A program made the translations under genes and the position numbers. A stretch of 63,187 nucleotides of DNA, the filler included, from Collodictyon triciliatum (lineage: Eukaryota), in NCBI GenBank assembly GCA_043381765.1. It is 6 parts of 6 records of this genome, joined end to end, with 100 filler letters (N's around TTAATTAATTAA, not from the genome) between each part and the next. Parts side by side here need not be neighbours in the genome. Positions count along the whole stretch, not along the records: positions 21,447 to 32,063 come from JBHJMP010002619.1; 5 more parts are not named here. One strand, written 5' to 3'. The notes under the pieces are model-generated. The model did no database searches. It was given only the letters and a program-made list of their open reading frames with translations, and had not been told where the DNA came from. Shown piece by piece: positions 28,560 through 28,740 of this stretch (within the stretch, counting starts at the first letter, position 1; each line of letters starts with the position of its first letter).

Positions 28560-28740
28560 TCGAAAGGCTGGATAAATTATTTTTTTATAAAAGTTCTTTG
28601 ATAAGAGCACTTTTTTTAACTAGAAAGAGTATACCATCTTTCGATTGGTAAACATGGTGTGCTAGTATCCAAGGTCTCACCACTTGTCTCACAAAGATCG
28701 TGTAGTGGTGAAGGCTGCCAGGAAAGACCCAACAGCCTAT
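28560..28740 (-). ncRNA. Candidate Fanzor omega-RNA scaffold
   Basis: Minus-strand consecutive hairpins AGGCTGTTGGG/CCTGGCAGCCT, TCACCACT/AGTGGTGA, TACCAATC-GAAA-GATGGTA inside ACTAG/CTAGT, and AAAAGT..TCTT/AAGA..ACTTTT, plus the long-range pair TTGGATA/TATCCAG. Located directly 3' of RuvC-III. Confidence 0.7.

Follow-up and report, generated by a model that had tools for sequence, protein, structure and literature searches.

Does a dead Fanzor1 transposon copy in the genome of Collodictyon triciliatum still carry a recognisable guide-RNA scaffold? The question is raised by positions 28560-28740 of the DNA analyzed here, a stretch of 63,187 nucleotides (nt), filler included, that joins six parts of six records of assembly GCA_043381765.1 and is hereafter called the window; the locus lies in the part taken from JBHJMP010002619.1 (positions 21,447-32,063). 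A first-pass annotation of this DNA had described five pairings on the minus strand, right after the RuvC-III motif of a Fanzor gene, and had read them as an omega-RNA scaffold. We give a probability of about 0.5 to the reading that the minus strand from 28738 to ~28550 is the omega-RNA scaffold remnant of a dead Fanzor1 copy located in the 3' untranslated region (3'UTR) of a host kinase gene; if a truncated version is counted too, a scaffold remnant is likely. This verdict comes mostly from the position of the stretch and from what relatives of the element encode at that position.

According to this reading, a Fanzor1 transposon, now dead, would have inserted into the kinase 3'UTR; the scaffold would begin within the last codons of the nuclease, right after the final conserved protein motif, and continue to the right end of the transposon, and the flank from ~28549-28547 downwards would serve as guide. 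Two parts of the proposed scaffold are the most credible: (i) an 8-bp hairpin (28711-28677), the positional counterpart of the first stem-loop (SL1) that covaries in the relatives, and (ii) a terminal helix (28652-28634 with 28571-28551) that surrounds a hairpin (28614-28589) and ends in a short inverted repeat with its mirror image upstream of the gene. Most likely, then, the window holds a further example of the known Fanzor guide-RNA system.

The omega-RNAs of the Fanzor1 nucleases SpuFz1, GtFz1, and PpFz1 share the sense strand of their nuclease gene, overlap its last codons (17 of them in GtFz1), and run to the right inverted repeat (Saito et al. 2023, PMC10432273; Xu et al. 2024, PMC11423790). 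They consist of a first stem-loop of ~7 bp, which contacts RuvC/TNB (PMC11423790), followed by one to three variable stem-loops, and the flank that immediately follows the conserved scaffold acts as guide (PMC10432273). The candidate in the window has the same placement, strand, and overlap, and its predicted guide would likewise be the flank. It differs in that its nuclease gene is dead, its end is a candidate and its small RNA a prediction, the hairpin located where SL1 would be is 8 bp long, with linkers unlike those of the nearest relatives, and an extra 11-bp hairpin at the 5' side rests on an 8-nt insertion.

A Fanzor1 pseudogene upstream of the candidate stretch

A Fanzor1 pseudogene occupies positions 28616-30705 of the minus strand; it opens with an ATG (30705) and a nuclear-localisation-like start (MKKRKR...) and closes with a TAA at 28618-28616. 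It is broken by eight in-frame stop codons and at least four frame changes (frame order -2/-3/-2/-3/-1), and a poly-A run of 67 nt (30090-30156) breaks it up further. The 634 amino acid relative P0012 matches the pseudogene in five colinear pieces (P0012 residues 131-625; tblastn). The RuvC-I (VDAG), RuvC-II (VDEF), RuvC-III (RDFN), and CxxC motifs are still readable and the D/E/D motif residues are kept, including the aspartate of the RuvC-III codons (RDFNSAKNI, 28796-28822). In addition, the fragment encoded by 28881-29129 is similar to the Fanzor1 of Parasitella parasitica (PDB 9cf0; E = 6.3e-6) and matches 209 proteins of a 1.84-billion protein library at E<=1e-3, 27 of them at E<=1e-10; the full-length matches have 590-700 amino acids and are 43-50% identical, and the search of this library with the fragment found no full-length protein that is >57% identical to it. 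Word-based protein searches with two fragments gave no match, and the Pfam family Cas12f1-like_TNB scored E = 0.18 on the pseudogene, under its cut-off. Judged by the three RuvC motifs, the CxxC motif, and the similarity to PDB 9cf0, the gene is that of a Fanzor1 nuclease, now a pseudogene.

The candidate stretch begins on the gene's own strand, 80 nt past the RuvC-III aspartate, at the codon following ...TPFSLKN, which corresponds to RPxxFxR, the final conserved motif in the protein of the relatives. It therefore has the placement of an omega-RNA, on the sense strand of the nuclease and overlapping or at the 3' end of the Fanzor gene; the position that the first-pass annotation had proposed, on the Fanzor-sense strand right after RuvC-III, is upheld, with the refinement that the gene is a Fanzor1 pseudogene and that its last conserved motif also precedes the stretch. 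Since the nuclease gene carries these stops and frame changes, the element has no working partner nuclease in cis, and function in cis has been lost.

An (ATT)n microsatellite of ~31 units (30788-30880) lies between the candidate left end of the element and the Fanzor ATG. Runs of this type, and poly-A runs such as that at 30090-30156, recur elsewhere in the window.

A covarying RNA module at the same position in relatives

To characterize this position in related elements, loci were collected with alignment A1 of the library matches, which confirmed 524 metagenome stretches, the best 80 of which were used. The same alignment detected 352 stretches in viral contigs, many of them on contigs named as giant-virus metagenome-assembled genomes (GVMAG). 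An earlier type of scan, with a single fragment, had given 207 metagenome and 19 viral pattern stretches, none of which was confirmed. The relatives (L001-L160) are 41-54% identical to the nuclease fragment of the window, and most of them are intact genes of ~600-634 amino acids. A RuvC-III motif followed by at least 250 nt is present in 72 of the 80 loci, 65 of these 72 fall in one cluster, and the 62 distinct 3' ends of that cluster were aligned (alignment A2).

Pairwise nucleotide similarity between the relatives stops sharply ~222-250 nt after the start of the RuvC-III motif, at ...AAAGGTGTAA, and their scaffold extends 80-100 nt past the nuclease stop codon. In the 62 relatives we identified a structure of 29 pairs made up of the outer and inner helices of SL1 (the inner one of 7 bp), the outer helix of a second stem-loop (SL2), and a 12-bp terminal helix. 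In this structure 95.1% of the cells are paired, as against 47-54% in slid controls, 14 pairs show compensatory changes, and none of 500 shuffles equalled it on every measure; the structure was read from the same sequences, so the slid controls are somewhat flattering, and the compensatory counts are unaffected. On the mixed alignment, RNAalifold predicted SL1 alone (11 pairs, six with compensatory changes). With five outgroup loci added (not including L009, which contains a long insertion), SL1 comprises 12 pairs, 97.2% paired, and 10 of the 12 are compensatory, with the outer helix occurring as GTCT/AGAC, TGACC/GGTCA, and TTGCCC/GGGCAA. The outer SL1 pairs suggested by RNAalifold, CTTT/AAAG, were rejected in favor of GTCT/AGAC, as it is with the latter that the outgroups covary.

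The 3' arm of the relatives' terminal helix coincides with the right inverted repeat of the element (~33 nt), and its 5' arm resembles the left inverted repeat. The end motif is present in 26 of the 30 loci examined, and in 18 of these 26 an inverted copy of its last 16 nt lies upstream of the gene; the ends have the form TTACACC...GGTGTAA, consistent with TA|CACC...GGTG|TA, which would suit a Tc1/mariner-like cut-and-paste element that duplicates TA. Taking these arms into account, the inverted repeats could be read as DNA-level signals, that is, as terminal and subterminal repeats bound by the transposase of a cut-and-paste element, with no RNA helix involved. In the window, 28652-28634 resembles the reverse complement of 28571-28551, which is the same kind of internal copy and would fit such a signal as well. 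We consider this explanation quite improbable as a replacement for an RNA helix, since the relatives' terminal helix is rich in G-U cells, which fit the sense strand only, and since SL1 and SL2 covary without being terminal repeats; the DNA-level and RNA readings are, moreover, mutually compatible.

The relatives therefore carry a typical Fanzor1 omega-RNA module: it has the sense orientation, begins within the final codons of the nuclease, runs to the right inverted repeat and is followed by a variable flank, in agreement with PMC10432273 and PMC11423790. An invariant core, GTCTTTCAC, lies within the C-terminal codons of the nuclease and is translated as SSFT by the majority of loci, but as GLSP by those of the L002 group; being invariant and yet read in two frames, it points to a constraint on the nucleotides. 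This covarying scaffold of ~150 nt, which overlaps C-terminal codons and has its core in two frames, is the firmer by-product of the analysis and helps to annotate the guide RNAs of viral Fanzor elements.

Two minor features of the relatives were observed. In L015, the terminal motif AAAGGTGTAA occurs twice at the right end (~3508-3540), 6 nt apart, which may be a duplicated end. In L024 (~1232), L014 (~1240), and L069 (~1235), a start of the form ATGAAT... is located ~88 nt inside the left inverted repeat, and the Fanzor alignment begins at ~1620; this start could belong either to a long N-terminal extension or to a small upstream gene.

Pairings and folding of the candidate stretch

All five pairings of the first-pass annotation are present on the minus strand. 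First, an 11-bp stem with three G-U pairs (28712-28738) is formed by AGGCTGTTGGG (28738-28728) and CCTGGCAGCCT (28722-28712). A second stem, the 8-bp hairpin at 28677-28711, pairs TCACCACT (28711-28704) with AGTGGTGA (28684-28677) and contains the inner CACGA/TTGTG. In the third hairpin region (28619-28672), ACTAG (28666-28662) and CTAGT (28623-28619) pair to enclose a hairpin that has a GAAA loop. A fourth hairpin (28589-28614; AAAAGT..TCTT/AAGA..ACTTTT) is a possible counterpart of the relatives' SL3. Finally, TTGGATA (28672-28666) can pair over a long range with TATCCAG (28574-28568). A possible outer helix, GGTCT (28729-28725) with AGACC (28677-28673), competes with the 11-bp stem.

The minimum-energy fold of the minus strand of 28560-28740 contains all five pairings, and its energy of -47.1 kcal/mol compares with -34.5 +/- 3.7 kcal/mol for shuffled sequences (z = -3.38; 0 of 200 shuffles as good), so the stretch folds better than the shuffled controls. 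We also scanned the local background (22000-30051, step 97, windows containing N skipped): the 160 strand-windows examined, each of 193 nt, had a median z of -0.20 and went no lower than -2.80, and the candidate scored -3.1 with the same script. The candidate thus lies below all 160 background windows, and its folding is above chance, not extreme, for a frame that was chosen.

Observations that weigh against a scaffold

A number of observations weigh against the scaffold reading, and they are given here together with the alternatives that they favor. The first concerns the strand. The plus strand of 28560-28740 folds equally well, at -50.0 kcal/mol (z = -3.15; equalled by 1 of 200 shuffles), and hence energy gives no preference for either strand; what stands of the proposed strand preference are the three G-U pairs of the 11-bp stem, which become C-A mismatches on the plus strand and on which the choice of strand depends. 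Furthermore, the RNA contigs over 28358-28653 belong to the plus-strand kinase mRNA and none is shown to be of the minus strand, in a type of data in which contigs cannot reveal the strand or the ends of a small RNA. Transcription across 28358-28653 on the plus strand, together with the plus-strand fold (z = -3.2), could speak for an element that acts within the 3'UTR of the kinase mRNA, for example in stability or localisation. It is very improbable that this accounts for the stretch: the sequence is derived from a transposon and has multi-copy look-alikes from ~28620 up, the three G-U pairs are lost on that strand, and nothing connects the fold to the kinase.

A second group of observations concerns the fold itself. 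When the minus strand is extended by 12 nt (28548-28740; -48.4 kcal/mol; z = -3.53), the GAAA hairpin with its ACTAG/CTAGT pairing and the long-range TTGGATA/TATCCAG pairing disappear, and a helix of 17 bp (5+9+3 bp) forms instead between 28652-28634 (TTTAC.AATCGAAAG.TGG) and 28571-28551 (CCA..CTTTCGATT..GTAAA), enclosing the fourth hairpin. The specific five-helix fold that had been proposed, although reproduced in the original frame, is not supported: two of its five elements are displaced in the longer frame, where the stems of 11 and 8 bp survive along with the fourth hairpin. The new terminal helix, whose 22-nt 3' arm is unique in the window and overlaps the candidate right inverted repeat, is A/U-rich: 36 of 1000 composition-matched shuffles gave a duplex as stable, as did 586 of 2218 other 28-mers of the window. 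As for the 11-bp stem, its 3' arm is largely an 8-nt stretch, TGGCAGCC, that is missing in the nearest relative, L009, with respect to which these extra eight bases shift the reading frame of the protein tail, and the stem has no counterpart in the 62 relatives. It should be noted as a caution that a good z-score from the fold of a single copy fixed neither the structure of the scaffold nor its end.

A third group comes from the comparison with the relatives. Covariance models built from them, R1 (whole scaffold, 165 positions) and R2 (SL1, 60 positions), gave no match at 28550-28740 in a search of the whole window at E<=10, and the best minus-strand alignment of a local covariance search over 28480-28830 reached 0.9 bits (E = 2.1). 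A blastn comparison of the candidate with the 80 relative loci found A-rich matches only (E>=0.09), and the lengths of the linkers around the 8-bp hairpin are reversed relative to those of the relatives. An exact 25-nt pattern search of the viral contigs found none, and Rfam searches of 27500-31500 at permissive thresholds found nothing in the candidate stretch and two weak matches elsewhere. The best match of R1 in the whole window, at 16974-17168 on the minus strand (15.4 bits; E = 0.53), has most of its stem pairs broken and was taken as chance.

These results would be expected if the stretch had no RNA function, its stems being chance pairings or by-products of coding sequence, located where the C-terminal end of a dead gene gives way to an A/T-rich UTR, with the real scaffold unrecognisable here. 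The equal folding of both strands, the failure of R1, R2, and Rfam over the stretch, the dependence of the 11-bp stem on the 8-nt insertion, and the change of fold upon a 12-nt extension all agree with this explanation. We nevertheless consider it unlikely, given that Fanzor/TnpB elements encode their guide RNA at this position (PMC10432273), as do the 62 relatives, that the z-score lies beyond those of all 160 background windows, and that the window and the relatives have common motifs at matching positions.

These common motifs are as follows. The protein tail of the window (GLS...SP...TSGETLD) is homologous to the tails of the relatives (GLSPVL..TGKSKTIV and EGLTITP..EKVGQSVD). GGTCTTTC stands in the window where the main family has an invariant GTCTTTC, and CCTTCACCACTA is common to the window and L009, its closest relative (51%). 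TTTAC and ...TGTAAAA of the window sit at the two arms of the relatives' terminal helix. An unguided MAFFT alignment places the 8-bp hairpin (28711-28677) on the 7-bp SL1 of the relatives, and the termini likewise, pairing ...TGTAAAA with ...GGTGTAA. Compared with the giant-virus and freshwater Fanzor1 elements as a whole, the window shares a nuclease that is 41-54% identical, a homologous C-terminal tail (GLS...TG.S.T..), the position of the RNA module, short strings, and a terminus resembling their TGTAA. It differs in that the relatives have intact genes, perfect inverted repeats of ~33 nt, and clear covariation, whereas the repeat of the window has just 12 nt and the relatives' covariance models do not detect it. 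The guide-scaffold interpretation of the first-pass annotation is accordingly borne out in part: in 62 relatives, this position encodes an RNA with covarying helices that extends to the right end of the transposon, and the covariance models add no homology to it; that the helices of the window are homologous to those of the relatives would follow from position and shared motifs.

Candidate ends of the element

Where the scaffold would end depends on where the element ends on its right side. Positions 28548-28559 (TTATGTAAAATA on the minus strand) form a candidate right terminal inverted repeat, a perfect 12-nt inverted match to 30901-30912, a candidate left repeat located ~195 nt upstream of the Fanzor ATG. 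This pair (28559-28548/30912-30901) suggests an element end near 28549, with which the guide start near 28547 given in the first-pass annotation agrees. An inverted match of at least 12 nt was obtained in 6 of 200 shuffles, which were mononucleotide shuffles, and a looser test (14-mers with at most two mismatches) did not exceed chance, giving five overlapping matches where the controls averaged 2.2 and reached up to 10, both points adding to those listed above against a scaffold that reaches this end. TA flanks a 10-nt repeat on both sides in the window, but the sequence is A/T-rich. Other candidate ends, neither confirmed nor rejected, are ~28630 (GGTATA), ~28606 (AAAAAGTGCT, with a 12/14 inverted match at 31416-31429), and 28589, the end of the fourth hairpin. 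We give roughly even odds to an end of the element and scaffold near 28550, and a distinctly smaller chance to an end at ~28620-28630, with the remainder falling elsewhere.

The position of this end is also where other copies of the family bear on the argument. Look-alikes were collected from X1 and X2 (RNA, one study) and from the freshwater metagenome X3, and aligned at 80% likeness; the sequencing run X10 yielded no alignment. Many diverged contigs span the Fanzor gene, which indicates that the family is multi-copy and present in RNA libraries. The summed depth of look-alikes drops toward the 3' end, from 263/179 (28685-28759) to 32/58 (28610-28684) and to single-locus level below 28610; 28535-28609 has no cover from other copies, which we do not take as proof of a boundary. 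Contigs of other copies lose similarity with loose ends at 28695 (X1, 22 letters) and 28619 (X3, 255 letters), and a third copy piece has 32 unmatched letters ahead of its start at 28622; these breaks, too, count against a scaffold that continues to ~28550. Over 28622-28745 the third copy has 18 differing letters and two gaps in 124 (~85% alike), and pieces of the open reading frame (ORF) of other copies are ~86-90% alike to the window, so that the impression of the first-pass annotation, of a stretch better preserved than the ORF, is not supported.

The alternative raised by these breaks is that the sequence derives from an omega-RNA only as far as ~28620-28630, the terminal domain and the right end having been lost or never present. 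The hairpin at 28614-28589, both long-range pairings, and the 12-nt repeat would then be chance features of an A/T-rich 3'UTR, and use as a guide scaffold would be impossible. In favor of this, similarity breaks off at 28619-28622 in two copies and at 28695 in another, the depth of look-alikes falls to single-locus level below 28610, the stop codon of the nuclease frame lies at 28618-28616, the terminal helix and the inverted repeat are weakly above chance, and GATGGTATA (28638-28630) also resembles the relatives' terminus AAGGTGTAA. Set against this, the relatives' scaffold goes 80-100 nt beyond the stop codon, and TTTAC and TGTAAA are located at the arms of the relatives' helix. The distance from RuvC-III to the end, 222-250 nt in the relatives, corresponds to 28600-28572 when counted from 28822 and favors 28550-28600 over 28620-28630; an end at 28550 would give 272 nt in the window. 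Since the interior of the terminal domain is its most variable part in the relatives, alignments at 80% likeness may also stop at the poly-A tract without a true boundary, which could explain where the copy alignments end. We regard such a truncation as a serious, though clearly less probable, explanation than a scaffold remnant that reaches ~28550.

A second copy was searched for inside the window, and only microsatellite and poly-A matches were found. Two short database proteins (NCBI records), P0007 and P0030, are 69% and 80% identical to the window fragment; both have the same frame-shifted leader (M.TQKEV.NCLW...), which marks them as degenerate members of this family from a genome that has been deposited.

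Predicted guide and possible function in trans

If the scaffold remnant reaches ~28550, the host flank at 28520-28547 on the minus strand would be its guide, a prediction based on the candidate end and on the known order of the two parts, scaffold first and guide after it (PMC10432273); this guide would be antisense to the kinase 3'UTR. Function of the scaffold in trans, with a Fanzor protein supplied from elsewhere, as the first-pass annotation had suggested, is possible but unsupported. A related case is that of the 'ghost' omega-RNA loci of Spizellomyces punctatus (Saito et al. 2023, PMC10432273), which lack a gene, lie between inverted repeats, and are both strongly conserved and expressed. 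Both those loci and the window would have a scaffold without a working nuclease in cis that could in principle be served in trans; in the window the decayed gene is still present, and the conservation and expression of the ghost loci are theirs. It could be speculated that the dead locus is kept as such a 'ghost' guide, with the minus-strand scaffold, still transcribed within and antisense to the kinase 3'UTR, being loaded in trans by intact nucleases of the family, whose relatives giant viruses carry, so that the kinase flank would be a standing Fanzor target or the antisense overlap would tune the kinase; we hold this to be improbable.

Should the reading as a scaffold remnant be correct, the locus would bring in another Fanzor1 family of eukaryotes whose scaffold can be read, and would tie a multi-copy, transcribed family of a freshwater eukaryote to the Fanzor1 elements of giant viruses.

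The host kinase locus

The base composition of the whole window (37% G+C) and the presence of spliced genes and microsatellites indicate eukaryotic DNA. The host kinase gene is encoded on the plus strand, where an RNA contig of 1856 nt (X2 record 8) joins 28032 to 28132 and 28240 to 28358 at GT..AG splice sites and extends past them as far as 28653. The two introns, 28033-28131 (99 nt) and 28241-28357 (117 nt), are backed by spliced RNA contigs. The kinase stop codon, TAA, is located at 28402-28404; together with the reach of the contig, this places a plus-strand 3'UTR from 28405 to at least 28653, with the Fanzor element within it, and as transcribed (28405-28653) it covers 28560-28653 of the candidate stretch on the opposite strand. 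An AATAAA is present at 28400, by the kinase stop codon, and the mRNA contig nonetheless reaches at least 28653, inside the Fanzor element.

An A/T-rich inverted repeat of 23 nt, 83% complementary, connects 28274-28296, in the last kinase intron, with 28576-28598, in the loop region of the candidate, and is probably due to chance. Finally, paired runs of 44 N, with 12 bases between them, occur at 10626-10725, 21347-21446, 32064-32163, 42778-42877, and 53480-53579, and longer N runs at 27715-27847 and 36623-37389; the regular spacing of the paired runs (~10.7 kb) looks like masking or scaffolding and not like biology.

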